A DNA stretch of 64,000 nucleotides from NCBI GenBank assembly GCA_041695225.1, contig JBGFRI010000011.1:68653-132652 (forward strand), read 5' to 3'. Below the pieces are notes generated by a model, which was given only the letters and a program-made list of their open reading frames with translations, searched no databases and was not told the DNA's origin. The stretch comes from Deinococcota bacterium. Lineage in GTDB: Bacteria > Deinococcota > Deinococci > Deinococcales > Thermaceae. Each line of letters opens with the position of its first letter. Position 1 is the stretch's first letter. Positions 2,915-23,800 of the stretch are shown one piece after another. Both the position numbers and the translations under genes were made by a program.

Positions 2915-3029
2915 CAGGCAAGCGACAGATTAATGTGCAAACTCCCCAAGTATTACGAGGGGAGAGTTTACGTTTTTCTGGTTCAGGGCTGAACCAGGGG
3001 GCAGCAAGCTGCCCCTGGGAGGAAGGTGT

Positions 3030-3197
3030 ATGGAAACTGATACTCACACCACAACCAGCCAGATGTGTACGTGTAGCACACACTGCGTCGAGAGCCCCTA
3101 CCACGAGTCAGCGTGTTGTTCACTCACGCACTGCCCATGCTGGTGCCATGAAAACAAGCGGGCAAAAAAGAACACCGTATCCGGCAGGGAGGCGTAG
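3030..3197 (+). CDS. 55-aa Cys/His-rich microprotein (not in ORF track)
   Basis: GGAGGAAGG RBS, ATG 3030, TAG 3195-3197 overlapping the ardC start; 8 Cys. Confidence 0.55.
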   Translation: METDTHTTTSQMCTCSTHCVESPYHESACCSLTHCPCWCHENKRAKKNTVSGREA

Positions 3198-4006
3198 TGA
3201 TGAACAGCGAAGCGCTAAAGGAACGGCTACAAGCCCATCTGCAAACATTGAGTGAGGAGCTTAAGCAAGGCAAGAGCCAGAACCTGCTCAAGCTTCTGGA
3301 GAAAATGGGGCGCTTCCACCAGTACAGCGCCCGTAATACCGTGCTGATTCTCTTCCAGCGGCCCGACGCCAGCCTGGTGGCCGGGATGAAGCGATGGAAT
3401 GAGATGGGTCGGAAAGTGAAGAAAGGTGAGCGGGCCATCGCCATCCTGGCCCCGACCATAAAGAATGTAGAGACAGTAGACAGGGCCACCGGCGAGGTAA
3501 AGGAAGACAGGCGGATTGTAGGATTCCACACCGCATATGTCTTCGACGTGTCTCAGACCGAGGGTAAGCCCATCGAGCTGGGCCGAGACCAGCCTGAAGA
3601 AGCTGCCCTGTATGCCCGACTGACGCAGGCTTGTCCGGTAAAGGTGCGGGAGGCGCTGCTACCTGCTGGAACAATCGGCAGGACCAACGGACGGGAGATT
3701 CAGCTATCCAGCACAATAAATTTCAGAGCGAAGGCCGAGACCCTGTTGCATGAATGGGCGCACATCTCGCTGGCGCACGTTACCCGGGAACGCAATGTCA
3801 CGCTGGAAGAACTTGAAGCAGAGGCTGTGGCCTACGCAGTCGGTCGGGAGATCGGGCTTCCGATGCAGGGGAGCCGAAACTACATCCTGGCATTCCGGGG
3901 CACGGTGGAGAAGCTGGAGGAGTCGCTCGACCGGATCATGCGGGCGGCGCGGGAGATCCTCGAGGGCTTCTATGCCGGGAGGCCGGCGCTGGCAGCGGCA
4001 GCGTAA
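3197..4006 (+). CDS. ardC: ArdC-like ssDNA-binding antirestriction protein with HExxH metallopeptidase-like domain
   Basis: RFHQYS.RN..LI..QRPDA..VAG...W...GR.VKKGE, VFDVSQT, LLHEWAH, ELEAEAVAY. Confidence 0.85.
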   Translation: MMNSEALKERLQAHLQTLSEELKQGKSQNLLKLLEKMGRFHQYSARNTVLILFQRPDASLVAGMKRWNEMGRKVKKGERAIAILAPTIKNVETVDRATGEVKEDRRIVGFHTAYVFDVSQTEGKPIELGRDQPEEAALYARLTQACPVKVREALLPAGTIGRTNGREIQLSSTINFRAKAETLLHEWAHISLAHVTRERNVTLEELEAEAVAYAVGREIGLPMQGSRNYILAFRGTVEKLEESLDRIMRAAREILEGFYAGRPALAAAA

Positions 4007-4023
4007 TCAGAAAAGGGCATGAT

Positions 4024-4257
4024 ATGAACATTGAATTTGATGGATACCGCTTAACAACTGACCATCCTGCCAGTTCGTATGGCATCCCTGTCCTGCTCAT
4101 TGCGGGAAAGGCACATGGGGTTGGCAATCTATCGCCAGAAAAGCGCCTTTCGGTCAGCGGAGCTGCTCACAAAGCGCGGGCTCGAGGTCACCTGACAAAA
4201 GACAAGTACAGGGCAGTACTTGTGTTCCTCGGACTTCGGCACCCCGGATACTATTGA
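4024..4257 (+). CDS. hypothetical protein
   Basis: Co-oriented short ORF; LTTDHPASSYGIPVL. Confidence 0.6.
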   Translation: MNIEFDGYRLTTDHPASSYGIPVLLIAGKAHGVGNLSPEKRLSVSGAAHKARARGHLTKDKYRAVLVFLGLRHPGYY

Positions 4258-4334
4258 GCCCAAGCCTGAGCTGACGGCGTAAACCAGGGGGGCAGCTAGG
4301 CTGCCCCACTTTTGTGGGTATAAAAGGAGGATGT

Positions 4335-4661
4335 ATGGCTCAAGTAGACCTGAAAGCCACCATCGCAGCATTGATGGCGCTGCCTGGTAAGCTGATTTTT
4401 CACCCGGTGTCGGATGGAGTTGAGATAGGAGTCCAGAGCAACATTTCAGAGGATTCAGCAGATACTCTTACCATTTACGATGATGGGTATATCTCCGTAG
4501 ATGATGGGTATTTCACAATCTTGGTCACCTGGGGCTCCATGAGCCACTGGGACCGGTGGGATGGGCCAACACTCAGGTACAGCGGAACCGTAGATGATGG
4601 AAGCGGAAGGTCGCTCCCAGACTGGGTAAAGTTCCTTCCCGAACCAACCGAGATTTTTTGA
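4335..4661 (+). CDS. hypothetical protein, paralogue family A
   Basis: AGGAGG RBS; similar to ORFs at 5471 and 18974. Confidence 0.7.
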   Translation: MAQVDLKATIAALMALPGKLIFHPVSDGVEIGVQSNISEDSADTLTIYDDGYISVDDGYFTILVTWGSMSHWDRWDGPTLRYSGTVDDGSGRSLPDWVKFLPEPTEIF

Positions 4662-4760
4662 AGCAAAACGACGTTAACCAGAGGGCAGCTTTTGCTGCCC
4701 CTTTTCAGTTTGTGACAATGGCCCGGGCCAGGCGGGTAAACCCTGGCAAAGGTAGGAATT

Positions 4761-5465
4761 ATGCACAAAGCAGTTGTTCAGTTGTTCAAAGGTTCGACCA
4801 CAATCACCCTGGAAGCGCCCTCACCGAAGGAGCTGATCCAGCAGCTCTCCTTCTACTCCCAGCTTCCACAGGAGTGCCCGGTGTGCGGAGCCGGGTTGGC
4901 CTTCAGCTACCGCGAGGCCCAGGGCTACAAGTTCTGGAGCCTGGTCTGCTCGGGTAAGCCCCAGCACGAATCGGTGTTTGGGCAATACAAAGCCGATGGT
5001 GGGCTTTTCTACAAGGCGGCCTGGACGGTTGTCCAGCGGGGCCGCGAGGAGGAGGAAGGGCCACCCCCTGCACCTGCGCCACAAAAGGCTGCTCCTCTGA
5101 CGCAGGAGTCAGCGCAGGTTGCTGCAAAAGGGCCAGAACTGCCTGGTGGTCTGGCAACGGTAGTCCAGATGAAGCACCTGGGAGAGGCGCTAAAGGAGGC
5201 CGGGCTGACGGTTCCAAGCGGGGCCAACGCCAGGGAGTCCTCGCTTGTGGCTCAGCAGCAGCGGAATTTCCTGAGCACGGTGCTCGGGTCGAAAGTGACC
5301 CTGATCAAGAGCCTGACCGAAGAACAGGCCCACCGGATCTTGACTGCCCTGGGCAGCTACGATAAGGCGGGAAACTACCGGCCAGATCGCAGGAAGATTA
5401 CAATAGCTCTGGAACATCACGTACAAAGCACAGCAGTAGACTTCACGCAGCTGGGAAAGGAGTAG
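4761..5465 (+). CDS. hypothetical protein with N-terminal CxxC zinc-ribbon-like motif
   Basis: CPVCG...C...H; Pro/Ala linker. Confidence 0.7.
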   Translation: MHKAVVQLFKGSTTITLEAPSPKELIQQLSFYSQLPQECPVCGAGLAFSYREAQGYKFWSLVCSGKPQHESVFGQYKADGGLFYKAAWTVVQRGREEEEGPPPAPAPQKAAPLTQESAQVAAKGPELPGGLATVVQMKHLGEALKEAGLTVPSGANARESSLVAQQQRNFLSTVLGSKVTLIKSLTEEQAHRILTALGSYDKAGNYRPDRRKITIALEHHVQSTAVDFTQLGKE

Positions 5466-5470
5466 TTGCG

Positions 5471-5722
5471 ATGGAAGCCAGCCTCAAGGCTTCCCTGGCT
5501 GTCCTGCTCCAGCGGCCTGGGGAGCTAGTAATTCGCCGCAGCCCACAGGAGCAGAACGGCTGGGTCGAGATCACCGTCGTTCGGGAGGACGGTGAGGACA
5601 GTCTGATCATTTACGGTAACGGTTCAGTCCTAACAAATGTCGTATGGAACGGAACAGCTTACGACTGGCCCGACTGGGTAGTCTGGGAGACTGCTAACTC
5701 ACAGGTGCCGGGAACTGCGTAG
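5471..5722 (+). CDS. hypothetical protein, paralogue family A
   Basis: AAGGAG RBS; LKASLAVLLQRPG...WPDWV. Confidence 0.65.
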   Translation: MEASLKASLAVLLQRPGELVIRRSPQEQNGWVEITVVREDGEDSLIIYGNGSVLTNVVWNGTAYDWPDWVVWETANSQVPGTA

Positions 5723-5797
5723 CGGGCCCTGGCATAAAAGGTGGGGGGTTTCGGCCTCCCACCTTCCAGTTTTTAGTTTTTCAGGAGGAGGTATCCG

Positions 5798-6367
5798 ATG
5801 CAGATTCAACTCGATCTTGCAACAGTAACAGGCAGGGAGATTCTGAAAGCTCTGACCTGGGACATCCTGCAATGCGGTCAGAAGGCCAGCCAGGATCTGC
5901 CTGTAGAAGGAACAAGTAATCTGGCCCTCTGGACGATTTTTGACGAGTGCAGGAACATCCCCAGCCTTCAAGAGATAAACCTGTTACACGACTATGCGCT
6001 ACAGCAGGCCACTCAAGAATACTGGTATCGAGAAGTGACTGAGATTGCTCGGGCATTTGCGGCCCTAGCTGGGGTTCCGCCAATACGTGCGACTACACCT
6101 GTCTCGGAATTCAAGGCTGGTTGCTCCACACCTGAGTCCCTCGATGCTGCGCTGGAGAGTGAGTACAACTGGAATGCTGAGTATTGGAGAATCAAACAGG
6201 CAATTACCCGCGCATTGGGAAAAGAGGTCTACGAGTACGAACAGACTCCCATGTTTTGGGCTGTATACCGGCTTAACCACGAAGTACAGAATGCCCGGGC
6301 AATGGCCATCATGTGGGCCTCGCTTTACATTCACCAGAAGTCCCGGGCCGGTCAGGAGGCAGCGTGA
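5798..6367 (+). CDS. hypothetical protein
   Basis: AGGAGGAGG RBS, 189 aa. Confidence 0.7.
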   Translation: MQIQLDLATVTGREILKALTWDILQCGQKASQDLPVEGTSNLALWTIFDECRNIPSLQEINLLHDYALQQATQEYWYREVTEIARAFAALAGVPPIRATTPVSEFKAGCSTPESLDAALESEYNWNAEYWRIKQAITRALGKEVYEYEQTPMFWAVYRLNHEVQNARAMAIMWASLYIHQKSRAGQEAA

Positions 6368-7215
6368 GCGATTCAACAAGTCTTTTCCAGAAGCGCCAGC
6401 CCACCCTGGGCCTGGTGGCCACCAAGGAGATCGCCCCGTGGCAAAGCGGAGCCAGGAGTGCCAGCACAAGAGCGATCAAGACGCTGGGCTTTGCCTCGAC
6501 GGTACTGCTGCGGGCCTTTCCTGAACCAAAGCAGATTACTTACGAGGACGGGTCTGTCGGGACTTTCCTTTTCGAGGTAGTTGACGGGGCCAGACGGCTT
6601 GACGATGCAAAGCGCGAAGGGCTGGAACAAATCCCGGCCACAATTCTGCCGCCCGAGACTACCGAAGCAGAGGTAGCAGCGTACCGGATCACCGCCAACC
6701 TGAGCCGACGGCCCAACCCGGCGCATGAGGTAGAAGCGCTAGAAAGTCTGTACCAGACCTACCAGCAACAAGGGTTAAGCGCCGAGGAGGCTCCCAGGGC
6801 GATAGCCGCAGCCCTGGGAATTAGTCTGGGTACAGTGAAGCGGCGTCTGAAGCTCACTACCCTGCCAGCGGTGGTGCGCCAGGCAGTAGCAGAGGGCAAG
6901 GTAGCCGCCAGTGTGGCCGAGGGTGTGGCTGGTCTAAACCCAGAACAGCAACAAGCCCTGGTAGAACGCCTTAACACGACGGGCAAGTTACACGCGGCTG
7001 ATGTCGCTGATGCAAGACGGGTCAGGCGGGAGTCTCAGTTGGCTGGGCTGGGCGAGATACTTCTGGCCCTGGATGCACAGCCGGAGCCGGCAGAGCTGTT
7101 CAGACAGGCAGTAAGACAAGCTCTTGGTAATGGCCTTACTTCTGAGGAGATGATGGCTATGATCAAGGAGATCGCAGTGGGAAAGGAGGTAGATAGTGTT
7201 TATTGCCCGGGCTAA
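6364..7215 (+). CDS. ParB/Spo0J-like protein
   Basis: GTGA overlap; EVVDGARRL (GxRR motif), ANLSR..NP..E, HTH AIAAALGISLGTVKRRL. Confidence 0.8.
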   Translation: MSDSTSLFQKRQPTLGLVATKEIAPWQSGARSASTRAIKTLGFASTVLLRAFPEPKQITYEDGSVGTFLFEVVDGARRLDDAKREGLEQIPATILPPETTEAEVAAYRITANLSRRPNPAHEVEALESLYQTYQQQGLSAEEAPRAIAAALGISLGTVKRRLKLTTLPAVVRQAVAEGKVAASVAEGVAGLNPEQQQALVERLNTTGKLHAADVADARRVRRESQLAGLGEILLALDAQPEPAELFRQAVRQALGNGLTSEEMMAMIKEIAVGKEVDSVYCPG

Positions 7216-7939
7216 TCCTGAAGTTGAGCGAGGCTGCGGCAGTTCCCGCAAGCGGGGTGGGGTCTACCTGGAGACCGGTCTAGTTCCTGCTGGTGGGAAG
7301 CCTTTGGAACATTTTATGTTCGATCCACCCAAGCCATACCAGGCTGAGATCAAGCGGGGAGTGCAGATCGTTGAGATCAACGGAACAAACCACGTTATTG
7401 ATTACGTGGGACAGGACTCGTATCCCTACCCCTCCGATATTCTGGAGGAGATCCGGCTGCACGGGCTGTCCCGGCTGGTAAGCCCGGGCGTGATAAAAGG
7501 GCAGTTGTCCCGCTCGAGTACAGTGCTCTTAGTTCATGCCAGAGCCATCCTGGTCAATGCGGCTGAGATGTATCCTTACCTGGAGAATGAGCGTCTGCAA
7601 GGACGCTGTAGCTACTATGTAGTAACCGGTAGTCAGTTACATCTGCACAGCCCGGATACAGCCTGCACCCGGCACAGTTATGCGCTGGCTGAAGCTACCA
7701 GGGTAGAGCAGCGGGAAGAGCGGGTAGTCTTCATGCGCCAACTTACCCGGCATGTGGGCTACCGGGTTGAGCCGGTGCTACCGGAAGCGCCTACGCCACG
7801 GTGGGAGAGCGGGCTAATTGCGGCCCTGCCGATAACCAATATCAGCGTAGTTGCCTCCGAGGATGGCTCGCACCTGGAAACGCTGAATGAGCTACTAACT
7901 TCCCTACCGGAGATGCACATTACGGCAAGTCCGATGTAA
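7196..7939 (+). CDS. hypothetical plasmid protein
   Basis: GGAGG RBS, ERGCG..RK.GGVY N-terminus. Confidence 0.7.
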   Translation: MFIARANPEVERGCGSSRKRGGVYLETGLVPAGGKPLEHFMFDPPKPYQAEIKRGVQIVEINGTNHVIDYVGQDSYPYPSDILEEIRLHGLSRLVSPGVIKGQLSRSSTVLLVHARAILVNAAEMYPYLENERLQGRCSYYVVTGSQLHLHSPDTACTRHSYALAEATRVEQREERVVFMRQLTRHVGYRVEPVLPEAPTPRWESGLIAALPITNISVVASEDGSHLETLNELLTSLPEMHITASPM

Positions 7940-7950
7940 AAGGAAAAGAC

Positions 7951-8178
7951 ATGGCTCCGATACGTGTTTATGCTGCAACAGGGCCTAAAAAACAACCCCG
8001 GCCTGGATGGTTGGTGTGGGTGGAATGTCTTGGGAAGTACCTTTTCGCCCCAGACCGTACCTTGAAGACGTTTCACCTTCACGAAATCTCAAAGGTACGG
8101 CCCATGTATCCCCAGGACCAGGCCCGGCTGGAACAGGCCGGTTTGATTCAGCAGAGCGAGGAAACTAATGGTAGTTAA
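7951..8178 (+). CDS. hypothetical protein
   Basis: Operon-like spacing, AAGGA RBS. Confidence 0.6.
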   Translation: MAPIRVYAATGPKKQPRPGWLVWVECLGKYLFAPDRTLKTFHLHEISKVRPMYPQDQARLEQAGLIQQSEETNGS

Positions 8179-8635
8179 GGGCGATTTTCTCGAAGGAATT
8201 AATGATCCAATGGGTGTTGTGGCTGCCCCCACCAATGGAGTTATCACTCCTGGGGGACTGGTAATGGGGGCCGGGGCAGCCCTGGCTCTGGCCAGGCGCG
8301 TACCCGGTTTGCGGGAAGCTCTGGCCGAGCAGATAAAGCGGAAGGGGCTTATCAAAAGCGGTTTCCGCGAGTACGGCTTTATCACTGTGCTGTACAAGAA
8401 CCGTCTGTGGGGGGCTTTCCAGACCAAACGGAGCTTTCGGCAAAAATCGGATCTGGAGCTTATCCGTTTCAGCGCCAAACAGTTACGAGTGTGGTTGCTG
8501 GAGAATCCTGAACACACGGTCCACCTGGCATTCCCTGGTATTGGGTTAGGAGGACTGAAGCCGGAGGATGTACTTCAGGTTTTCCAGGAAATACTTGGGC
8601 CCTCTCCAAAGCGAGTAAAGCTCTACCAGCTCTAG
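8168..8635 (+). CDS. stand-alone macrodomain (ADP-ribose binding/hydrolase, DarG-like)
   Basis: VKGD, N...VMGAG.A, FQTK, FPGIGLGGL macrodomain motifs. Confidence 0.75.
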   Translation: MVVKGDFLEGINDPMGVVAAPTNGVITPGGLVMGAGAALALARRVPGLREALAEQIKRKGLIKSGFREYGFITVLYKNRLWGAFQTKRSFRQKSDLELIRFSAKQLRVWLLENPEHTVHLAFPGIGLGGLKPEDVLQVFQEILGPSPKRVKLYQL

Positions 8636-8645
8636 GAGGCAGAAG

Positions 8646-9173
8646 GTGCAGTACGTTTCTGAGTACATCAAGATGCTAAAGACCAGGGTCTGGGATAACC
8701 CAGGACTGGCTCAGGCTGCACGACAGCTAATCGAGGTCTACAATAACGATGGTCCCATGCTCACGGCAGCGTATGCGCGTATCGTACTACACGCTTCAGA
8801 AGGCCCGGCCCGCCAGATGCTGGTAGATGTCAGTGCTCTAGGGAATCTCGATGACTCGGGTAATACCAGTCCCTGGACTCTGGCCGATCTCTCGCCCGAG
8901 GCGCAGGATCTACTGGATAACAGTTTCAAGCTACTCGAACAGCAGCTTCGAGAAACCCTGGCCGCCTGGCGGCAGGACCGAATCCTACTGGCCAGGCTAC
9001 TGGTAGCAGCAGATACCTACACCGCTGATCAGACTGGTGCTGAGGATTCCCGGGTCGGGCTAGTGCAGCCGGTAACTGTTGCAGAGGCCGAGGCGCTCAA
9101 CGCTGCGGTGGCCGCAGCCTGGGCCAGGCTGGGAACGGCTGAGGTAGAGAGGCTGCTACAAGACAAAGAATAA
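8646..9173 (+). CDS. hypothetical protein
   Basis: AGGAGG RBS, GTG start. Confidence 0.65.
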   Translation: MQYVSEYIKMLKTRVWDNPGLAQAARQLIEVYNNDGPMLTAAYARIVLHASEGPARQMLVDVSALGNLDDSGNTSPWTLADLSPEAQDLLDNSFKLLEQQLRETLAAWRQDRILLARLLVAADTYTADQTGAEDSRVGLVQPVTVAEAEALNAAVAAAWARLGTAEVERLLQDKE

Positions 9174-9224
9174 CCCTCAGGGGGCAGCCAGGCTGCCCCC
9201 TGTGCTGCCTGTGCAGGAGGTTGT

Positions 9225-9479
9225 ATGACAGAGATAACTATCCAGCTTGGCAGCACAATCCTTCATGGCGGCATAGCAGCCCGGATGGCTTACTGCCCGG
9301 TGCTAAAAGACACCTTTGGCATTATTTATCTGGAAACACCAAAAGGGGGTGTACTGTTGCCCAAACATGCCCTGGTTCCCCAAGGCAGCTATTACAAGCT
9401 GGCCCGCTGGTTTCGGGGCAGTCCTGAAGTATGGGCCAGACTCGAGTCGGCCAGCAGACTCGCCGGAATTAGCGCCTGA
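9225..9479 (+). CDS. hypothetical protein
   Basis: AGGAGG RBS. Confidence 0.6.
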   Translation: MTEITIQLGSTILHGGIAARMAYCPVLKDTFGIIYLETPKGGVLLPKHALVPQGSYYKLARWFRGSPEVWARLESASRLAGISA

Positions 9480-9496
9480 GTACGAGGAGGTATTAA

Positions 9497-10435: not shown

Positions 10436-10496
10436 TCACAAACCAAAGGCCAGGGGGCAGCAAAGGCTGCCCCTTTTCTTTGCCTGGAGGCCCCAA

Positions 10497-11048: not shown

Positions 11049-11051
11049 CTG

Positions 11052-16852: not shown

Positions 16853-16914
16853 TGCCAGGGGGCAGCACAGCCGCCCCACCTATTTTTGTGAAAGACACTT
16901 TGCGGAGGTCCCCG

Positions 16915-17331: not shown

Positions 17332-17427
17332 TTTGCACTGGTAAAGAAATCCGCCAGGGGCGGCTTTATACCCTGGCCCGGTTCAAGCGCCTGCCCCGGC
17401 CCCCCATTTCAATGAAGAAGGTTGGCA

Positions 17428-17658
17428 ATGACCAGAGACTTACTACGCGAGTCTGACCAGGCCGCCGGGATGATCCGCCAGTATCTCAAAGAGGTCAAGG
17501 ATCGGCGTGATCGTTATCAACTCAGGCTGGATACCAGGGAACTGGCCGAGCTTTACAACGCCCTGGCCCGGGCCCTGAGTATCGCCAACCGGCTTTCGGG
17601 CAGGTGTGTTCAGCCTGAAGAGTACACTGCTCAGGCTTTGCAAAAACTCGTGGACTGA
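17428..17658 (+). CDS. hypothetical protein, paralogue family B
   Basis: DTRELAEL...ARAL...NRL. Confidence 0.65.
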   Translation: MTRDLLRESDQAAGMIRQYLKEVKDRRDRYQLRLDTRELAELYNALARALSIANRLSGRCVQPEEYTAQALQKLVD

Positions 17659-17672
17659 AAAGGAGGAAGTTT

Positions 17673-17978
17673 ATGCGCCGGATCAATGACCCGGTAGTCG
17701 TACATCAGTACCTGGTGCGACTCACCGATAATCTGAAATACCTAACTGTGGCTCAGGCCAGATTACTGCTGGCTTCGAGGGGGATCCGTTGCCAGCACAA
17801 AGCAGTAAAGGCAGCCCTGAAGCTGCCTGTAGCTGTAGCTACTATCGTACCCCAGCCACTTCCGAAACCTAAAAAAGTGAGGTTGAAGCCATTGGACGAT
17901 CTACCGCTCACACCCAAAGAACGGGAGATCATGGAGCGCCTACGGCGCACACGGGAGGAATCCGACTATGCTCAATAG
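17673..17978 (+). CDS. hypothetical basic protein
   Basis: AGGAGG RBS. Confidence 0.6.
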   Translation: MRRINDPVVVHQYLVRLTDNLKYLTVAQARLLLASRGIRCQHKAVKAALKLPVAVATIVPQPLPKPKKVRLKPLDDLPLTPKEREIMERLRRTREESDYAQ

Positions 17979-18135
17979 CCCCAGCACCCCCCACAATCTG
18001 TGGGAAGAACCGGTTGAAAAGGTTGAGCTGGCCCGGCACTGGATTGACCGGGCGCTGGAGCACTACGAGAAAAACGACTGGCAACACTTCCTGATGGCTG
18101 TAAATCTAGTCAAGGAGTGTTTGCAGGATTTCTAG
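17968..18135 (+). CDS. 55-aa protein (not in ORF track)
   Basis: GGAGG RBS, fills the gap in the operon. Confidence 0.5.
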   Translation: MLNSPSTPHNLWEEPVEKVELARHWIDRALEHYEKNDWQHFLMAVNLVKECLQDF

Positions 18136-18150
18136 GGATGGAGGTTCTCA

Positions 18151-18450
18151 ATGGAATGGTGGAAACAGGGAAAATGGTCATCCAAATACTTTGGTGATTT
18201 CACCGTTTCCCTTAGCCTGTTACATCCCCGCTTGCTAGTTGTAACTATCTACCGCAGCTACACGCTGGAGATAACTGCAAACGTAGACCTCAACAACATG
18301 GAGTCGCTGATCACCGTTTTGCAGATTTTACGAGCATTAGGCTGCGACGATGCCACTCCCTGGATTACTGATGTTGCGCTAGAGAATGGGCTGGTAGTTA
18401 CCACTCAGGAGGAACCATGCAATTCATCACACGACAGGCTTTTGCAGTAG
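18151..18450 (+). CDS. hypothetical protein
   Basis: GGAGG RBS. Confidence 0.6.
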   Translation: MEWWKQGKWSSKYFGDFTVSLSLLHPRLLVVTIYRSYTLEITANVDLNNMESLITVLQILRALGCDDATPWITDVALENGLVVTTQEEPCNSSHDRLLQ

Positions 18451-18977
18451 CTTACCGACTAGCCCAATTCTACGACCACGAGTGGGCCAGGCGGCCCCTT
18501 GAGATTCCTGACTGGGCTACAGGCCCACAGGATCTTCGAGCCCATATCCGGGTCGAGACCGTGAAGGCACGAGGTAACAACCTACCGGGCATTGCAGAAC
18601 CCGACCTGAAATACGATGTCAGTGTTGCCTCATGGGAAATATGGCATATCGTTGGTACAGAGCGCACCGAGTATTCTATTCTCTGGCACGAACGTGGGTA
18701 CGAACCACTTTCACTAGCCATATTCGTGACCTGGCCAGATGGACGGGCACATATTCACTACACCCACAAGATTGGAACACTCGATGTAGAAGGCAGCTAC
18801 GGCGGTGCCCTCGAGGCTCGCCACTGGCGGGCGCTGGTTGAGCCAGTAACCTGGCTGGACGGAAATACCAACCAGCTCGAGATCGCTTTCCCAGACCGGC
18901 CCTGGGAGGCTTTTATCCAGCCTTCCAAAGACCCGGAGCGGTGGTGGGAGTATGTTGAAAAGGAGGGTGCGGGGTGA
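18417..18977 (+). CDS. hypothetical protein
   Basis: AGGAGG RBS. Confidence 0.65.
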   Translation: MQFITRQAFAVAYRLAQFYDHEWARRPLEIPDWATGPQDLRAHIRVETVKARGNNLPGIAEPDLKYDVSVASWEIWHIVGTERTEYSILWHERGYEPLSLAIFVTWPDGRAHIHYTHKIGTLDVEGSYGGALEARHWRALVEPVTWLDGNTNQLEIAFPDRPWEAFIQPSKDPERWWEYVEKEGAG

Positions 18978-19279
18978 AAGTCGAACTTGAGCGTACACTT
19001 GCAGCACTGCGGGCCTTGCCAGGGGCCCGTATTATCACACACGAAGACGCTGGCACTCACATTGTGGCTGTGTTGGATTACAGGCTCGAAGATCTGTTAT
19101 GTCGCTCCGATGGCACTTTCCGAGTTACAGTCCACTCGGGCCTACCAGGACGCTACGACGCCTGGGAAATCGACGACCAGGCCATTTATTACGATGGAAC
19201 CGAAGAAGGCACTCGCTATCCCCCATCATGGCTGTTTTTTGATCTACTGAGTCCGGTAATCGGGGAGAAGAAGCCATGA
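18974..19279 (+). CDS. hypothetical protein, paralogue family A
   Basis: GTGA overlap; LERTLAALRALPG...PPSWL. Confidence 0.65.
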   Translation: MKVELERTLAALRALPGARIITHEDAGTHIVAVLDYRLEDLLCRSDGTFRVTVHSGLPGRYDAWEIDDQAIYYDGTEEGTRYPPSWLFFDLLSPVIGEKKP

Positions 19280-19608
19280 ACCGCTACCCGACATTTGAAC
19301 GAGCCTATGACCACTGGTATTTGCGGGGCTATCGGGTAGGCGACCTGGTAGCAGCAGTCAATGTCTTCAAAAACAATCTCAACACGCGCAAGCGTGTGTG
19401 GCGCGTATCAGAGCCAGACTACGGCTACTGCATGACCATGTGGAAAGGTACAAAAAAAGAGGCTATTCGCCTTGCCGAACTAATGCAGGAAGAATGCTCG
19501 TGGAAAGAGGTCGGTAAGCTGAAAGGTAAACTACAACTGGTCCAGTACGAGGATATTGCATACCGGGCTATAGCAAAGCTAGAGCGAGAGCTACAAACCC
19601 GGACCTAA
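19276..19608 (+). CDS. hypothetical protein
   Basis: ATGA overlap. Confidence 0.6.
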   Translation: MNRYPTFERAYDHWYLRGYRVGDLVAAVNVFKNNLNTRKRVWRVSEPDYGYCMTMWKGTKKEAIRLAELMQEECSWKEVGKLKGKLQLVQYEDIAYRAIAKLERELQTRT

Positions 19609-19691
19609 TGTGTTGTTCCGAAAAACATTTATCATTCCAACCACAAGTAAGGCACGGACATCACGGTACAGCCACTAAGAAAGGAAACGGT

Positions 19692-20066
19692 ATGACAAAG
19701 ATTCTAGCAGTACAGGACACAGATCTCTGGCTTTTTGCTCAGACGCCGCAAGGCTGGAAATTCTTGACTTTCGTTTACGAGGACGAAAGACCAGACGTTG
19801 CCTTGCGGACTGTAGATAACGTACTTCAGGGCCTGGGAATCCAGGCCAGTATCCAGGCGGTTGAGCTACCGTGGCTAACCAGCTTTACCTTCGCAGACTT
19901 TGAACCAGAAAACGCCTCCAGGCCAGAGCTAGAAGGCCGTCGTCGTCGGGCAGAGGCCCAGCTCAAGGTGGGGTTCGATGGGGAGACCGAGGCACTAGAG
20001 TGGCTTCTGGCACACCGACCAGACTGGGTACTAAAGGGGGCGCAAAATACCGAGCTCTTGTCATAA
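19692..20066 (+). CDS. hypothetical protein
   Basis: AAGGA RBS, ATG 19692. Confidence 0.6.
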   Translation: MTKILAVQDTDLWLFAQTPQGWKFLTFVYEDERPDVALRTVDNVLQGLGIQASIQAVELPWLTSFTFADFEPENASRPELEGRRRRAEAQLKVGFDGETEALEWLLAHRPDWVLKGAQNTELLS

Positions 20067-20067
20067 C

Positions 20068-20114
20068 ACACTAGATATAGTAGTATCTCCGCTATGTCCT
20101 ACTAGATGGGGTAC
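20068..20114. promoter_or_regulatory. tandem NrdR boxes
   Basis: ACACTAGATATAGTAG (20068) matches acaCwAtATaTwGtg; weaker CTACTAGATGGGGTAC starts 31 bp later; upstream of nrdA. Confidence 0.75.
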
Positions 20115-20144
20115 TGTCTAGCCAGGACATGCAGTCGCTATGCC

Positions 20145-20250
20145 TGTTCCGCCAGGAAGGACCCGGAAGGGTTCGGGGGAAGCCGGTGAGAGTCCGGCGC
20201 TGTCCCGCAACGGTAACACGGCCAGTACGTGAAGTCCGAGTACCCGCTTA
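20145..20250 (+). ncRNA. cobalamin riboswitch
   Basis: GGGAAGCCGGTGAGAGTCCGGCGCTGTCCCGCAACGGTAA core and B12-box-like AAGTCCGA; upstream of a B12-independent RNR; boundaries approximate. Confidence 0.9.
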
Positions 20251-20294
20251 GCGACTCCATCCCACGCCCTCGACGGAAGGGCACCGGAGGTCAT

Positions 20295-22004
20295 ATGTCA
20301 CACCTGTTCACCGCCAAGCCGCTTCAGACCAGCTACAGCACACCACGCCGCAAGCGTCCTCCCTTCTCCTGGCTGACCGACGAAAGCCGGGCCTTTTTAC
20401 GACAGGGCTACCTGCTGCCCGGCGTCACGCCGGAAAAACGCCTGCGGGAGATTGCCGAACGCGCCGAGGCACTGCTACCTGGTATGCACGGCTTTGCCGA
20501 GCGGTTTTACGAGTATCTATCGCGCGGCTGGTACTCGCTGTCCACCCCCATCTGGGCCAACTTTGGGCTGTCCCGTGGCCTGCCCATCAGCTGTTTTGGC
20601 TCGTATGTGCCCGATAGCATGGCCGGTATCCTCGGCACGGCTGCCGAGGTCGGGATCATGAGCAAGTACGGCGGCGGGACCAGCGCCTATTTTGGCGATC
20701 TGCGCGGGCGCGGCTCGCCCATTCGTGACAACGGCCAGTCCGAAGGCGCGGTAAACTTCATGCGCCTTTTCGATACCCTGATCGACGTCACCAAGCAGGG
20801 TGCGACCCGTCGCGGCTCGTTCGCGGCCTATCTGCCCATCGAACATCCCGACATCGGCGAGTTTCTGGAAATCCGCTCAGACGGCAACCCTATCCAGAAC
20901 ATCTTCTTTGGGGTAACGGTCAGCGACGCCTGGCTTACCGCCATGCGCGAGGGCGACCAGGAGAAACGGCGGCTATGGGCGCGGGTGCTGCAAAAGCGCA
21001 GCGAGGTAGGGCTGCCTTACATACTTTTTAGCGACAATGCCAGTCGCGGGGCCGCCGATGTCTACCGCGACCGGGGCCTGGCAATTCGCTCCAGCAACCT
21101 CTGTAGCGAGATCATGCTGCCGGTCACGGCAGAGGAGTCGTTTGTCTGCGACCTCTCCAGCATGAACCTGCTTTACGTAGGCGAGTGGCAGGATACCGAT
21201 GCGGTGCAGCTCCTGACCTATTTTCTCGACGCGGTGATGACGGAGTTTATCCAGCGAACCGAGGGCATCCCCTACTTCGAGCGGGCGCGGCGCTTCGCCC
21301 TGCGCCACCGCGCTCTGGGTATCGGGGTGGTGGGCTGGCACAGCTACCTGCAGGCCCAGATGATCCCGCTAGCGAGCCTGACCGCCGCGCTGAAAAACGT
21401 GGTGATCTTCCGTACCCTGCGCGAAGCCGCTTATGCTGCCTCGGCCCAGTTAGCCCGGCGCTACGGCGAACCCCCAATGCTGGAGGGCTATGGCCGCCGT
21501 AACGCCACCCTGCTGGCGGTCGCGCCGACCACCTCCAGCTCCTTCATCCTGGGCCAGGTCTCCCAGAGCATCGAGCCGCTGCGCTCGAACTACTGCGTGC
21601 GCGACCTGGCCAAGGCCGTAACTAGCTACCAGAACCCCGCCTTCAAGGCCCTGCTGGCCGAACTGGGCCGGGACACCCCGGCGGTCTGGCGGAGCATCCT
21701 GGAGCACGATGGCAGCGTGCAGCACCTCGAGTTCTTGGGAGCCGAGGAAAAGCGCGTCTTTGCTACCTTTTCCGAGATCAGCCAGCTCGACCTGGTGATT
21801 CAGGCCGCCGCCCGTCAGCCGTTTATCGACCAGGGGCAGTCGCTCAACCTGCTGGTCCACCCCGAGACTCCGGCCCAGGAGCTCAATGCCCTCCACCTGG
21901 AAGCGTGGCAGCGGGGCCTCAAGAGCCTCTACTACCAGCACAGTATAAATGCCGCCCAGGCCTTGGGCCGCAGCCTGCTGGTCTGCTCGTCGTGTGAGGC
22001 ATAG
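20295..22004 (+). CDS. nrdA: class I ribonucleotide reductase alpha subunit (short, no ATP cone)
   Basis: LPISCF, GGGTS, SNLCSEI, APTTSSS, KSLYY, C-terminal CSSCEA; GGAGG RBS before ATG 20295. Confidence 0.95.
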   Translation: MSHLFTAKPLQTSYSTPRRKRPPFSWLTDESRAFLRQGYLLPGVTPEKRLREIAERAEALLPGMHGFAERFYEYLSRGWYSLSTPIWANFGLSRGLPISCFGSYVPDSMAGILGTAAEVGIMSKYGGGTSAYFGDLRGRGSPIRDNGQSEGAVNFMRLFDTLIDVTKQGATRRGSFAAYLPIEHPDIGEFLEIRSDGNPIQNIFFGVTVSDAWLTAMREGDQEKRRLWARVLQKRSEVGLPYILFSDNASRGAADVYRDRGLAIRSSNLCSEIMLPVTAEESFVCDLSSMNLLYVGEWQDTDAVQLLTYFLDAVMTEFIQRTEGIPYFERARRFALRHRALGIGVVGWHSYLQAQMIPLASLTAALKNVVIFRTLREAAYAASAQLARRYGEPPMLEGYGRRNATLLAVAPTTSSSFILGQVSQSIEPLRSNYCVRDLAKAVTSYQNPAFKALLAELGRDTPAVWRSILEHDGSVQHLEFLGAEEKRVFATFSEISQLDLVIQAAARQPFIDQGQSLNLLVHPETPAQELNALHLEAWQRGLKSLYYQHSINAAQALGRSLLVCSSCEA

Positions 22005-22006
22005 GT

Positions 22007-22993
22007 ATGCTGACCGACCGCAGAATCCACCTGAGGCCGGCGGAATACCCCCAGTTTCTGGCTTACCGCGACGCCATCCGGCACTCCTACTGGCTGCACA
22101 CCGAGTTCAACCTGACCGAGGATGTCCACGACTTTCGCGCCCGGGTCAGCGCCGCCGAACGTCAGGCTATCACCCGCACCATGCTGGCCATCGCCCAGGT
22201 CGAGGTAGCGGTGAAGACCTTCTGGGGAGACATTTATCAGCGCTTCCCTAAGCCCGAGGTCGCTGCGGTCGGCTACACCTTCGCCGAGTCCGAGGTGCGT
22301 CATCAGGATGCGTATGCGCACCTGCTCGAGCTATTGGGGCTCAGCCGGGAGTTCGAACGCCTGGACCAGGTGCCGGCAGTGCAAGGGCGGATTGCGGTGC
22401 TAAACGAGCACCTGGCGCAGCCACCAACTCTGAAAACCGACCGCGATGGTCGGGCCTATGCCTTTACCATCCTGCTGTTCAGCGTCTTCGTCGAACACGT
22501 TAGCCTTTTCGGTCAGTTTTTGATCATGAAGGCTTTTGACCGGGCCCGCCAGCTGTTCAAAGGCATCGCCAATATCGTCGAGGCCACCAGCAAAGAGGAG
22601 CAGATTCACGGCCTGTTTGGCTATCAACTGCTCGAGACCTTGAGGCTCGAGTTCCCGCACTGGTTCGACACGGCCTTCTTCGATGATTTGGCGCGGGCCT
22701 GCCGCCAGGCGTTTATGGCCGAGCGAGCAATCCTGGACTGGATCTTTGAAGATGGAGAGCTTGACTTCCTCCCTAAAGCCCAGATCGAAGCCTTTATCCA
22801 GCACCGCTTCAACGCCTCTTTACAGACAATCGGGCTGAGGCCGTTGTGGACGGTAGACCCCGCAGCCGTCGCCGCGACACATTGGTTCGAGGAGGAACTC
22901 TTGGCCGGTAAGCACCTCGACTTCTTCCACAAGCGCCCTACCGCCTATGCAAAGAAGGTCAGGGCCATCACCGAAAATGATCTGTTTGTCTGA
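22007..22993 (+). CDS. nrdB: class I ribonucleotide reductase beta subunit
   Basis: ESEVRHQDAY, VEHVSLF, KEEQIH di-metal ligands, DFFHKRPTAY. Confidence 0.95.
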   Translation: MLTDRRIHLRPAEYPQFLAYRDAIRHSYWLHTEFNLTEDVHDFRARVSAAERQAITRTMLAIAQVEVAVKTFWGDIYQRFPKPEVAAVGYTFAESEVRHQDAYAHLLELLGLSREFERLDQVPAVQGRIAVLNEHLAQPPTLKTDRDGRAYAFTILLFSVFVEHVSLFGQFLIMKAFDRARQLFKGIANIVEATSKEEQIHGLFGYQLLETLRLEFPHWFDTAFFDDLARACRQAFMAERAILDWIFEDGELDFLPKAQIEAFIQHRFNASLQTIGLRPLWTVDPAAVAATHWFEEELLAGKHLDFFHKRPTAYAKKVRAITENDLFV

Positions 22994-23322
22994 GCGGAAC
23001 CTGTATCCCCGCAGAGGTAGTTGATGAGCCAAAACCAAAGCCGAGATTGCCCGGGCTCTGCTCGAGCAAAGGTAGGCCACAGACTTGGACCAGGGGGCAG
23101 CCGCTGCTGCCCCTTTGCTTTTTCTGAGGTAGTTCAGTATGGTTGAGAAAAAACCGCAGTGGGACGAGAAGGAGTATTCCAGGCATCTACGTGAGGAAGG
23201 GCCCGGGCCAGTGAATGAGCACCCTAATGGTTGTTATCATTGCGGCTCAACCTGGCATATGAGCACCGATTGCCCCGAGGCCAGGAGTGACGGCTACTAC
23301 GAGTCATTTGAATGAGGTAAGT

Positions 23323-23727
23323 ATGCTAATTCATGGGCACGGCTTTACAACAGATGAACAGATGTCTGGGGAAATTGTACTGGCCCTGGACGAGAATAAC
23401 TGGGCAATTATCCAGCTAGAGCGTGAGCTGCTGGAAAGGGCTGCACAATTTTTGAAGGGACAGGGCCTCGAAGTGATCCTAAAGTCGCCCCGCGAGATCG
23501 AGGTGCCAGTTTACAACGCCTCAGAGATAGCAGAGCTAGGCGACTTGGACGACCTGGAGGATATTCCTTTGGAGGAGCTGCTTGAGAAGATGAAGCACAT
23601 TGAAGCCCAGGAAGCTCTGGTGACAGTTGTGCTCGAAGCCGGACAGGCTTCATTAGAAGGACATACGCTCGAGCCTTCTTATTCCGGTCATCGCGAGCTG
23701 AGGCCCCTCTGGGCAATTTTGCCGTAG
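23323..23727 (+). CDS. acidic hypothetical protein
   Basis: GAGG RBS; very Asp/Glu-rich. Confidence 0.6.
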   Translation: MLIHGHGFTTDEQMSGEIVLALDENNWAIIQLERELLERAAQFLKGQGLEVILKSPREIEVPVYNASEIAELGDLDDLEDIPLEELLEKMKHIEAQEALVTVVLEAGQASLEGHTLEPSYSGHRELRPLWAILP

Positions 23728-23800
23728 GTACGGAAGGACATCGTGCTTAGACCAGGGGGCGGCAGAAGCCGCCCCACTTGCTTTTTTGAGAGGAAAAACC

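Follow-up and report, generated by a model that had tools for sequence, protein, structure and literature searches.

A co-oriented family of intercistronic hairpin units in a lineage of Thermaceae conjugative elements

Results and discussion

Hairpin units in the window

The 64-kb window analysed here carries a zone of co-directional genes encoding several proteins for the handling of single-stranded DNA, comprising DprA-like, ArdC-like and Rad52-like proteins, a beta clamp, a DnaC-like loader and a DnaQ-like exonuclease, and this gene content suggests an establishment (leading) region. The zone is punctuated by 11 copies of a short hairpin spanning positions 2033-23789, all of them located between genes and co-directional with these, as the initial annotation had stated for the ten copies it listed. 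A search for the core pattern GGGGCRGC-N2-6-GCYGCCCC gave nine exact matches in the window (2998, 4289, 9181, 10454, 13454, 13740, 16859, 23094 and 23756, all on the plus strand) compared to 0.01 expected from shuffled sequences. The tenth copy, the TTTT-loop hairpin at 4682-4701, has one mismatch to the core pattern (AGGGCAGC). The family is wider than first noted, and a covariance model added an eleventh copy.

The added copy (2033-2075, plus strand like all others) is a divergent unit reading ACCAG-CGGGCGGC-CTG-GCCGCCCG, with a covariance model score of 22.7 bits and a match to a relaxed pattern, and it separates an HD-domain gene (1516-1998) from a HicB-like gene (2114-2458). The unit at 2988-3029, identified by the pattern and the covariance model, combines a 12-bp stem (CCAG...CTGG) with the lack of a T-tract; GGAGG and the ATG at 3030 come immediately after it, and the ArdC-like gene is downstream. 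Three units were detected by the pattern, the covariance model and a simple terminator scan: 4278-4321 (loop TAG and an extra G in the leader, with the start codon at 4335 27 nt on), 10444-10487 (loop AAAG, tail TTTTCTTTG, start at 10497 23 nt on), which sits 3' of a DUF6094 methyltransferase gene, and 13730-13773 (G.T pair in GCGGC/GCTGC, loop AAAA, T-rich tail, start at 13783 23 nt on). The mismatched TTTT-loop copy (unit 4672-4715, T-rich tail), found by the covariance model and the relaxed pattern, was the fourth and last family member flagged by the terminator scan. In sequencing run X10, a variant in G-run length was seen behind position 4286, within the unit at 4278-4321.

Both the pattern and the covariance model also identified the units at 9171-9213 (leader CTCAG, loop CAG, no T-tract, start at 9225 25 nt on), 13444-13487 (loop TCAT, a pyrimidine-rich but T-poor tail, start at 13498 24 nt on), 16849-16891 (loop ACA), directly 3' of the DnaC/IstB-like gene, and 23084-23127 (loop CGCT, tail TTTGCTTTTT, start at 23139 25 nt on), 100 nt 3' of a ribonucleotide reductase beta gene. 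The last unit (23746-23789, loop AGAA) was matched by the pattern and, at 50.9 bits in the covariance model, is the best-scoring copy of the genome; it lies 25 nt before the Rad52-like gene. The compensatory pair of this copy (GCGGC/GCCGC on both arms, core at 23756) and the G.T pair at 13740 had been reported before and are both real, and an A.C mismatch on the plus strand at 16859 (GCAGC/GCCGC) had been overlooked.

Other details of the earlier description needed adjustment. The CCAG leader directly abuts the stem in 8 of the 10 copies listed initially, the exceptions being 4289 (CCAGG and then the stem) and 9181 (CTCAG). The distance from stop codon to hairpin, given as 2-30 nt for most copies, is 6-100 nt, with 8 of the 11 copies at or below 31 nt and the rest farther away. 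T-tails described as weak or absent are indeed poor in four copies (at most 4 T), but T makes up five or more of the first 10 nt in the remaining seven.

Distribution in the genome and in the family

The confinement of the hairpins to 3-24 kb holds only inside the window, since the covariance model detected four further plus-strand copies upstream on the same contig (C12:58901, 60284, 60855 and 65603). The hairpin zone thereby becomes a 33.5-kb stretch (C12:58.9-92.4 kb). When the whole 2.83-Mb genome was scanned, all 10 exact pattern matches and every covariance model match with E<0.01 were located on C12, with the plus strand scoring best at 15 of 15 sites, and neither method found anything comparable outside the zone. 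A motif equally common on the chromosome in both orientations, raised initially as the opposing possibility, is not what was found. An independent repeat finder returned the hairpin family as the three largest direct-repeat families, with similarity confined to approximately 30-46 nt.

A covariance model scan, which the initial annotation had proposed for related plasmids, recovered co-oriented clusters of the unit in 13 of 68 Thermaceae genomes. A named plasmid of the Thermaceae and some metagenome contigs carry the unit as well. The sites number 115, in 16 loci. Within each locus all sites lie on one strand, with the G-rich arm always first. In the loci examined, an orthologous gene for the type IV coupling protein lies 25-30 kb away from the units, and a Pfam scan of the open reading frames located a relaxase-like gene on the element. 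The conjugative nature of the element is confirmed, and the units belong to one lineage of Thermaceae conjugative elements, either integrated or existing as plasmids. The conserved core of these elements includes several uncharacterised proteins, e.g. the families of 140 aa (window 2492-2914) and 101 aa (window 17673-17978; 25 copies in 12 genomes). The element also encodes a sigma-70-family protein (L021:13380-14093), which is 80% identical in G002. The G+C content of the hairpin zone is 57% here and 61-69% in the relatives, and the A-U pair typical of the present element agrees with this lower value. Thermus oshimai pTHEOS02 has the same architecture, built from different stems, in 14 of the 15 intergenic gaps of its homologous region; these hairpins have no T-tract and occur between almost every pair of genes of 200-500 bp.

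Architecture and constraint of the unit

The unit comprises approximately 45 nt, arranged as a leader (A)CC-AG, a stem base GGGGC...GCCCC, a T/C-rich tract and the Shine-Dalgarno sequence of the next gene (consensus nnnGAACCAGGGGGCGGC..GCCGCCCC; tail consensus in the relatives nCTTCTTTG). The hairpin itself is 20 nt long, with a stem of 8-10 bp and a loop of 4 nt, where the base is invariant while the inner stem and the loop are free. The two C of the leader are near-invariant (88/97 and 84/97 units). Predicted folding energies of the window copies are -10.8 to -18.3 kcal/mol, corresponding to the stable GC-rich stem of an intrinsic terminator. Searching Rfam returned no family at the gathering threshold on any unit, nor at E<=1 over positions 1900-24000.

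In the alignment of units, pairing is retained in 99% of 954 cells, and three of the eight pairs have changed in both partners (CG to UA/AU in 12 rows and GC to AU in 12 rows), giving a covariation score that was reached by none of 500 shuffles. Among units keeping the leader and the stem base, the inner segment ranges from 6 to 31 nt and the stem from 5 to >13 bp, the shortest being only the 5-bp GGGGC/GCCCC; variants include UUCG and GCAA tetraloops. As the inner stem both covaries and changes in length, the structure is the selected feature.

Every unit falls between co-directional genes. Across loci, the hairpin follows the stop codon at a median distance of 11.5 nt (interquartile range 4-26), and from its 3' end to the start codon the median is 24 nt (interquartile range 23-25; 21-27 nt in 74 of 89 units), a tight spacing that may in part be due to inheritance of a single conserved block and not to selection. 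For the window copies, this hairpin-to-start distance spans 14-59 nt, with 7 of 11 at 23-27 nt. At positions -25 to -13 the T share is 44% in hairpin units (n=60) versus 22% at hairpin-less gaps (n=291). With a median of 24 nt to the start codon, Shine-Dalgarno sequence included, the array junctions with units leave no space for internal promoters, and sigma-70-like sites numbered 4 in the searched region versus 7.0 +/- 2.6 in shuffles, with none at a unit.

Duplex DNA sites and mobile-element hairpins as alternatives

With their 8+8 palindrome, whose spacer is mostly 4 bp, the arms could make the unit a double-stranded site, either an operator for a KorB-, ArdK- or Reg576-like repressor or a promoter for the sigma factor of the element. 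A promoter would be well served by the fixed start distance, the element does encode a sigma-70-family protein, and the motif GAAC-N15-GCCG bears a loose resemblance to group-3 sigma promoters. However, inner lengths of 6-31 nt and stems of 5 to >13 bp cannot be reconciled with the constant geometry of an operator or a -35/-10 promoter, the arms vary between units by compensatory changes, and the ParB-like gene lies outside the conserved core. The variable geometry largely refutes a double-stranded operator or promoter, and in combination with the covarying stem it excludes both, leaving this explanation very improbable. The initial annotation had drawn a parallel to the CUP repeats of IncN plasmids, and both are conserved sequences repeated upstream of anti-restriction and other plasmid genes. 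In the available text of PMC6289460, which cites Delver and Belogurov 1997, the CUPs are bound by the repressor ArdK, and one CUP overlaps the ardK promoter; they thus act on duplex DNA, a mode ruled out for the present units by their variable geometry.

A short conserved leader followed by a hairpin also resembles REP sequences and the ends of IS608, and a TnpB gene is found nearby (27656-28864, minus strand), as might be expected for REP/RAYT- or IS200/IS605-type sites handled by a Y1 (HUH) transposase. This origin is extremely unlikely, as the only Y1 transposase match of the genome (PF01797) is on contig C8, off the element, no unit adjoins the TnpB gene, and all copies occur in the one 33.5-kb stretch instead of being dispersed, with none on the chromosome. 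Integron attC sites, which are imperfect palindromes of 57-141 nt with extrahelical bases next to an IntI integrase, were likewise rejected, the present unit being a near-perfect hairpin of 20 nt and no integrase domain being among the Pfam matches of the scanned open reading frames.

Possible gene exchange at the hairpin junctions

The shared 45 nt could alternatively serve as portable homology or swap sites for gene cassettes, possibly through the Rad52-type annealing protein of the element, whose gene is present in 10 of the 12 compared genomes. Of 1922 homology end-points, 324 lie within 40 nt of a hairpin, where approximately 2% would be expected at random positions, and end-points occur at 63 of 77 hairpin junctions versus 109 of 193 hairpin-less ones (odds ratio 3.5, p=8e-5). 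Across a hairpin, one and the same downstream gene was seen joined to four or more different upstream genes, and in gene-order maps the conserved backbone is interrupted by variable slots with hairpins at their borders. Module boundaries would be breakpoint-rich in any case, however, and the excess became small when flanks were collapsed into unique groups (discordant in 4/8 hairpin versus 10/31 control groups, and 3/7 versus 9/27). Of 14 clean indels, 12 were hairpin-less at both ends and one was hairpin-bounded on both sides. Gene order is overall conserved rather than shuffled, and DNA contigs from four sequencing runs contained a single weak joint (8755 to 14034), away from the hairpins. 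The REP-like cassette shuffling suggested initially has at best weak support: it agrees with the raw breakpoint enrichment, but not clearly with the collapsed data, and the rarity of hairpin-bounded indels and the location of the Y1 gene speak against it. We consider such exchange quite unlikely to be the main function of the units.

A comparable arrangement is found in the PeSL (promoter-early stem-loop) elements of T4-like phages, composites with a stem-loop between small accessory genes in hyperplastic regions (PMC4122927, PMC2839356). According to the available text, these are also short and conserved and were proposed as exchange points between otherwise unrelated sequences, but they include an early promoter (PMC4122927). 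In the present units approximately 24 nt separate hairpin and start codon, without promoter-like sites, and hairpin-mediated exchange is weakly supported.

A possible signal on the transferred single strand

The element being conjugative and the zone rich in proteins for single-stranded DNA, the hairpins might instead fold on the transferred strand, as priming (ssi-like), protective or loading structures during conversion to duplex. They share one orientation and are equally stable on both strands (sense more stable in 52 units, antisense in 39, equal in 3; p=0.15), and the complementary strand has CTGG after the hairpin, CTG being the start triplet of E. coli primase. In RSF1010, ssiA and ssiB are recognised by the RepB' primase. 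Against such a role, the unit keeps its place relative to stop codons and, to within 1-2 nt, relative to the next start codon, neither of which a DNA signal needs, and the T-rich tract is found only on the sense side. No Prim-Pol match was obtained in the genome with a search whose control worked, and the pTHEOS02 hairpins are too dense for priming. Frpo promoters, too, are structured elements among the co-directional anti-restriction and single-strand-handling genes of a conjugative element, but the available description is of an extended imperfect hairpin resembling duplex DNA, with -35 and -10 elements (PMC11541004), for which the 20-nt hairpin, lacking both, is far too short. The suggestion of a signal active during transfer thus gained no positive support from hairpin length, the primase search or strand asymmetry in stem stability, and we regard it as improbable.

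A proposed intercistronic RNA module

Among the options raised initially, an RNA signal would best fit the anatomy of the unit, as judged from sequence, and we infer that the units act in this form. Our preferred interpretation, held tentatively and with slightly less than even confidence, is a cis-acting RNA module between cistrons, which would work as a leaky terminator or a stabiliser of RNA segments, coupled to the ribosome-binding site of the next gene. The module would act in cis on the sense transcript of the long one-directional gene array. The hairpin and its U/C tract would halt or pause some polymerases, or shield the 3' end of the upstream RNA segment, and in read-through RNA a hairpin 24 nt before the start codon would insulate, and possibly stabilise, the downstream ribosome-binding site. 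The outcome would be graded or segmented expression of blocks of 1-9 genes, and the copies would resemble each other because they share an ancestor and the structure of the stem base is constrained.

A plain intrinsic terminator, ending a transcription unit ahead of one with its own promoter, does not fit, as the median gap to the next start codon is 24 nt and no promoter-like site lies at any unit. The units were initially judged to be more than ordinary terminators, and this is supported: they are element-specific, conserved across 13 genomes, placed at a fixed start distance without room for a promoter, and different from the 103 terminator-like hairpins of the host genome, which have diverse stems and A-rich leaders. 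The T-tract is missing in 4 of 11 window copies, in several copies of relatives and in all pTHEOS02 hairpins, and termination therefore cannot be the shared core function. It also counts against a terminator-like module that, behind fifteen efficient terminators, the distal genes would be silent. With the sense fold more stable in 52 units and the antisense fold in 39, the stems do not favour RNA over a hairpin in single-stranded DNA either.

Intercistronic stabiliser hairpins are known, e.g. the REP sequence in the malE-malF spacer of E. coli. With intrinsic terminators and stabilisers the unit shares a GC-rich stem of 8-10 bp, a tetraloop, a mostly U-rich tract, co-orientation and placement after stop codons. 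It differs in having one stem common to all copies of one element, a conserved leader and a fixed start distance, and in lacking the T-tract in a minority of copies and in all homologues of the Thermus plasmid. The closest analogues are the PeSL discussed above, the EGeRS of pLS20-family plasmids and the SAS/ESAS ((extended) start-associated sequences) of Cluster K mycobacteriophages. For the SAS/ESAS, the available text describes inverted repeats with a variable spacer upstream of a ribosome-binding-site motif near the start codon, with 11-19 ESAS copies per genome, nearly all in one orientation and in the non-structural half, a lineage-specific consensus and a suspected role in translation initiation (PMC3203893). 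The inverted repeat with variable spacer, the fixed start distance, the single orientation and the non-structural location are shared. However, the ESAS have 17-bp arms and a 13-bp SAS of a sequence unrelated to the present consensus, belong to phages of Actinobacteria instead of a conjugative element of Thermaceae, and are described in that text without the T-rich tract (PMC3203893). The unit here has an invariant stem base and 5' leader; it is an analogue and not a member. The EGeRS (establishment-gene regulatory sequences) of the pLS20 family, as far as the available texts describe them, are likewise conserved repeats confined to part of a conjugative plasmid, lie just before the ribosome-binding sites of several operons including ardC (PMC8708921), and are rich in inverted repeats among mosaic establishment genes (PMC8708921, PMC6294495). 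EGeRS1 measures 420-750 bp in 5 copies and EGeRS2 is a promoter with repressor operators (PMC8708921, PMC6294495), in contrast to a single hairpin in approximately 45 nt and up to 15 copies here.

Both the near-invariant CC of the leader and the G-arm-first polarity go beyond a generic hairpin and hint at a possible sequence-specific reader of the conserved stem base. In a broader form, an element-encoded RNA-binding protein, either an antiterminator or an endoribonuclease, would recognise CC-AG-GGGGC...GCCCC and open or cut all units together, turning on the whole accessory region as one block, e.g. after transfer. We find this unlikely. Conservation at the leader and the lowest five pairs with a free upper stem and loop is what would be expected if a protein read the hairpin, the polarity is kept in 115 of 115 sites, and serial terminator-like units without promoters between them call for read-through control; in addition, these elements have several uncharacterised core proteins, such as the 140-aa and 101-aa families. 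However, the conserved base may be no more than the most stable stem beside a U-tract, and no candidate reader was found: Pfam and PHROGs returned nothing for the uncharacterised core proteins, protein atlas scores were at most 0.81, and no NusG-like family was among the Pfam matches of the scanned open reading frames.

In its boldest version, which we consider unlikely, the units would be the cis sites of an undescribed regulon-wide switch, in which a reader encoded by the element binds the invariant CC-AG-GGGGC stem base, either on nascent RNA or on the single strand as it enters, and converts approximately 15 serial stop or processing signals to read-through. If so, transfer would be followed by a single timed pulse of expression from the whole region of anti-restriction, recombination and replication genes, and new genes could join the regulon by recombination between two units, which would then act as portable junctions.

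Copies of the hairpin unit in the window and genome

The hairpins were found to be part of an intercistronic unit of about 45 nt, comprising a CC-AG leader, a GGGGC...GCCCC hairpin, a T/C-rich tract and the Shine-Dalgarno (SD) sequence of the next gene. The core (GGGGCRGC-N2-6-GCYGCCCC) had nine matches in the window, compared to 0.01 expected from shuffles, and the tenth copy of the initial annotation, at 4682, was recovered when one mismatch per arm was allowed. The exact core was found ten times in the whole genome, only on the contig carrying the window (C12, cited in its own coordinates). The suggestion that these hairpins are more than ordinary terminators had been set against a motif equally common on the chromosome and in both orientations; as exact cores occur on C12 only, that alternative fails.

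A covariance model of the unit (R1), built on an alignment of 48 oriented units (A1), identified 11 sites in the window (2033, 2988, 4278, 4672, 9171, 10444, 13444, 13730, 16849, 23084 and 23746) and four more on the same contig 5' of it (C12:58901, 60284, 60855 and 65603). All R1 matches with E<0.01 in the genome (2.83 Mb, 50 contigs) lie within C12:58.9-92.4 kb, and in the genome scan the + strand was the best-scoring one at every site. By this model the family, at first thought confined to 3-24 kb, reaches about 10 kb upstream past the window start. An independent repeat finder returned the units as the three largest direct-repeat families, with similarity stretching over only ~30-46 nt.

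The sixth stem pair of the 11 window units is A-T (GCAGC/GCTGC) in seven, G-C in two, and G.T and A.C in one each; the A.C mismatch, on the + strand of the copy at 16859, had been overlooked when a compensatory change and a G-U pair were first recorded. In relatives this pair is G-C in nearly all units. As the G+C content of the zone is 57%, compared to 61-69% in relatives and 70% in the Thermus plasmid, the simplest reading is that of a pairing-only position which drifts with composition while pairing is preserved. The loops all differ among the window copies, and whole-unit gene conversion among them is thus unlikely.

Several other repeats or hairpins were seen in the zone, all on the + strand. 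In the copy at 2988 (2970-3015) the leader TGAACCAG can also pair with CTGGTTCA located 5' of it, so that two hairpins would lie side by side; its homologue in relatives, the first unit there and located after a DprA-like gene, is identical including its flanks in eight loci. A terminator-like hairpin outside the family (5738-5765; 12 pairs, tail CCAGTTTTTA) lies between the genes at 5471-5722 and 5798-6367, so unrelated hairpins are also used in the zone. A 49-nt direct repeat (15595-15643 and 15697-15745; 90% identical, 102 nt apart) is found inside the 233-aa gene preceding the DnaC-like gene, each copy comprising a GGACAAAATGTCC-type palindrome and encoding a repeated peptide (KLSAPIER...), and a relaxed hairpin pattern also matches this region (15591-15613).

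Architecture of the unit

The unit was analyzed in 20 sources (430,534 bases), where R1 at E<=0.001 gave 147 matches corresponding to 115 sites in 16 loci, the strand being uniform within each of the 16. The consensus from A1 reads nnnGAACCAG-GGGGCGGC-loop-GCCGCCCC-nCTTCTTTGnGnGA(GG). What stays invariant among the 94-97 unique units is CC (88/97 and 84/97), then AG, and GGGG(C) in the 5' arm with (G)CCCC in the 3' arm, and the inner stem and loop are free: inner-stem variants include GGGGGTGGC/GCCACCCC, GGGGGAGGC/GCCTCCCCC and GGGGCC/GGCCCC, and in other variants the stem is reduced to 5 bp below a GCAA loop, the loop is UUCG, or the inner segment extends to as many as 31 nt. In an alignment fitted to the R1 model, antisense rows included, pairing was kept in 99% of 954 cells with both-side changes at three of eight pairs (25 cells), and the covariation score was reached by none of 500 shuffles. 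Since the inner length is free and the pairing kept, the conserved feature is structure and not spacing.

The variable hairpin length rules out a promoter for the element's own sigma factor as well as a palindromic double-stranded operator, because both require fixed geometry, and it leaves a site read in duplex DNA as a highly improbable explanation. Promoter-like sites showed no enrichment (4 compared to 7.0 +/- 2.6), and none was found at any unit. The CCWGG- and GCNGC-like sites in the unit were judged to be a by-product of the GC-rich palindrome.

The unit is tightly placed relative to the next gene. The distance from the 3' end of the hairpin to the SD-bearing start codon has a median of 24 nt (IQR 23-25; 21-27 nt in 74/89 units), and the end of the upstream stop codon lies a median of 11.5 nt before the hairpin (IQR 4-26; at most 6 nt in 36/88 units). 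From hairpin to SD, T accounts for 44% and pyrimidines together for 74% of the tract (n=60), compared to 22% T at hairpin-less gaps (n=291). The initial description of the tails as weak or absent is not generally valid, as seven of the 11 window copies have T at five or more of the first 10 positions behind the stem. Only some units are predicted to have their SD sequestered by the pyrimidine tail, and inconsistently. The 103 terminator-like hairpins identified across all contigs of the genome vary in their stems and are preceded by A-rich leaders, and no Rfam family matched any unit.

A putative cis-acting element of the sense transcript would best fit this anatomy, because of the polarity, the stop-to-SD placement, the sense-side T/C tract, the tetraloops of RNA type present in unit variants and the lack of room for a promoter. 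Hairpin stability does not differ significantly by strand (sense strand more stable in 52 units, antisense in 39, equal in 3; p=0.15), a result compatible with a signal acting in single-stranded DNA. Such a signal would leave the coupling of the unit to translation signals unexplained; with no positive support, and no match in a Prim-Pol search, we consider it improbable.

A wider hairpin-before-RBS design

Plasmid pTHEOS02 of Thermus oshimai has a homologous region (NC_019388.1, 8500-17000) encoding a DEAD-box helicase, a DUF6094 protein, an SSB, and SWIM-finger and Rad52-like proteins. Of the 15 intergenic gaps there that exceed 15 nt, 14 have folds of -17.9 kcal/mol or lower, in most cases through a GC-rich hairpin ahead of a GGAGG-type SD and the start codon. 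In nearly all gaps between the small genes, such a hairpin precedes GAAGGAGGTGA and ATG, and in some the hairpin is very long (-52 to -76 kcal/mol). These hairpins often begin CAG-GGGGG, their stems are unlike those of the window units and they lack the T-rich tract. The design of a hairpin before the ribosome-binding site is thus older and wider than the sequence family of the unit, and termination cannot be its common denominator.

Gene surroundings

Upstream of the window, C12 encodes RepA/RepC-type replication proteins, a relaxase-like protein, a VirB4-like ATPase, a type IV coupling protein and a lytic transglycosylase. These genes make the element a conjugative one; its hairpin zone is a putative establishment or leading region, judged by gene content. 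The hairpin zone encodes, on the + strand, an SNase-like nuclease, an HD-domain protein, HicB-, ArdC-, ParB- and DprA-like proteins, a DUF6094 methyltransferase, an SNF2-type helicase, a beta clamp, a DnaC/IstB-like ATPase, ribonucleotide reductase, a Rad52-like protein and many small uncharacterized proteins. A sigma-70-family gene (region 3 match) also lies inside the zone on the + strand (13380-14093 of L021, an upstream stretch of C12; C12:62032-62745), and an 80% identical copy is found in a relative (G002) about 15 kb upstream of its hairpin cluster.

A cobalamin riboswitch (RF00174; 20123-20265, +; 47.5 bits, gathering score 31.5) directly precedes the ribonucleotide reductase alpha/beta genes (20295-22993), with the hairpin unit at 23084 coming after this operon. 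An uncharacterized 101-aa family (17673-17978, +) has 25 copies in 12 genomes with hairpin clusters, and the first 50-75 nt of the gene match Thermus megaplasmids at 83-94% DNA identity. Downstream of the zone, defence-island genes (29387-41393, +; G+C rising to 63-68%) encode a DruE-like helicase with MZB and DUF559 domains (1707 aa), a DpdE/DrmD-like SNF2 protein (931 aa) and a DrmMI/type IIG-like methylase (1361 aa). A TnpB gene (OrfB_IS605 and Cas12f-like TNB; 27656-28864, -) has the accessory array on one side and the defence genes on the other, and a TnpB gene also adjoins the hairpin cluster of plasmid NC_014214.1.

Distribution among relatives

Exact cores were found clustered in many genomes of the same family. 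R1 at E<=1e-5 gave 5-15 matches each in 13 of 68 family genomes, from the genera g1, g2 and g3; the 32 genomes of genus g5 had 0-2 weak matches each. In a phylum sample of 151 genomes, one of the 102 from other families had an R1 match (E<=1e-7), and only a single one. The coupling protein has an orthologue (70-72% identical) that shares a contig with the hairpin cluster, at a distance of 25-30 kb in G001, G002, G005, G014, G022 and G028 and of about 50 kb in G013. The elements carrying units form one lineage, found on plasmid-sized contigs as well as within contigs larger than 3 Mb. A 10-kb stretch of one cluster matches NC_014214.1 (Allomeiothermus silvanus pMESIL02) with 100% identity, in the annotation of which plasmid the hairpins occupy gaps between minus-strand genes.

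A strict 21-base version of the unit was found in 96 stretches of metagenome contigs, and among the 80 stretches listed all 14 contigs with at least two copies keep them on one strand. Viral contigs gave 14 stretches, all unrelated single matches without the RBS architecture, and there is no sign of the units as a phage family. The whole zone, compared to plasmid and phage DNA, gave short Thermus matches or none. Among the matches listed from other genomes, leader-plus-core patterns were singletons in unrelated GC-rich taxa, apart from one further locus with the pattern on both strands; both were read as chance.

Breakpoints at hairpin junctions

Whether breakpoints of gene gain and loss coincide with the repeat was examined by comparing 13 elements all against all. 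Homology end-points lay within 40 nt of a hairpin in 324 of 1922 cases, compared to ~2% expected at random positions. End-points were found at 63/77 hairpin junctions and 109/193 hairpin-less ones (odds ratio 3.5, p=8e-5), and in pairwise counts hairpin junctions were broken 469 times and conserved 150 times, compared to 686 and 559 for controls. None of these counts is independent; on collapsing to unique flank groups the excess became smaller (discordant 4/8 hairpin and 10/31 control; 3/7 and 9/27), and the test is limited by the crude control gene calls (sense-strand ORFs with an SD). Of 14 clean indels, 12 were at junctions free of hairpins and had none at either end, and only one had hairpins on both sides.

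Gene-order maps revealed a backbone that is conserved and interrupted by variable slots, many of which have hairpins at their borders. The consistency of hairpins with the downstream and with the upstream gene family was 0.919 in both directions and does not tell the two apart. The fragmentary DNA contigs of four runs on 4000-23999 showed no hairpin-to-hairpin deletion; they contained one weak joint (8755 to 14034, side 25) away from hairpins and a G-run length variant behind 4286. We conclude that the hairpins mark module borders and are unnecessary for gene gain or loss and not clearly causal. A primary role as recombination linker, which the raw enrichment would suit, is given a low probability, and a REP/RAYT-type site is ranked as very improbable indeed.

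Possible functions and related systems

The reading we favor, at slightly less than an even chance, is an intercistronic module: the unit may attenuate transcription, or shield the RNA segment upstream at its 3' end, and its hairpin would serve as a fixed insulator in front of the next ribosome-binding site. Such a module does not explain why the CC leader is invariant and why the G-arm-first polarity is fixed, and these two features keep alive a sequence-specific reader, an antiterminator or nuclease, as a rather unlikely candidate; the 101-aa and 140-aa core proteins, possible readers, gave protein atlas scores of at most 0.81 and nothing in PHROGs.

The nearest described systems are ESAS/SAS of Cluster K mycobacteriophages (PMC3203893), which share the architecture of the unit and are equally unexplained, the PeSL cassettes of T4-like phages (PMC4122927) and the EGeRS sequences of pLS20-family plasmids (PMC8708921), with CUP repeats (PMC6289460) and Frpo (PMC11541004) as further leading-region precedents. 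The unit belongs to none of them by sequence or defining features. A full-text search of a literature library with few subscription journals found no paper with the three unit strings and no description of such repeats in Meiothermus or Thermus elements. We regard the unit as real and well delimited, and as a putative regulatory junction, repeated in the accessory region of a mobile element and now with a working covariance model.

To our knowledge, the timing or balancing of variable accessory and anti-defence gene expression in conjugative elements has been described for a few plasmid families only. Documented examples are Frpo (PMC11541004), CUP repeats with ArdK (PMC6289460) and Reg576 with EGeRS (PMC8708921). 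The unit, a compact and easily recognized 45-nt junction with up to 15 copies per element, conserved in three genera and also present in metagenome contigs, offers a simple handle on such control in thermophiles; the covariance model now locates the elements and their gene blocks, and its small size suits the unit to direct reporter, Term-seq and pull-down tests in genetically tractable Thermus or Meiothermus hosts. Should a specific reader exist, the unit would represent a regulon-wide switch of a new kind; otherwise, it would be a clean natural example of a standardized terminator-RBS junction, and would add a second, independent instance of an architecture so far unexplained, that of the mycobacteriophage ESAS.
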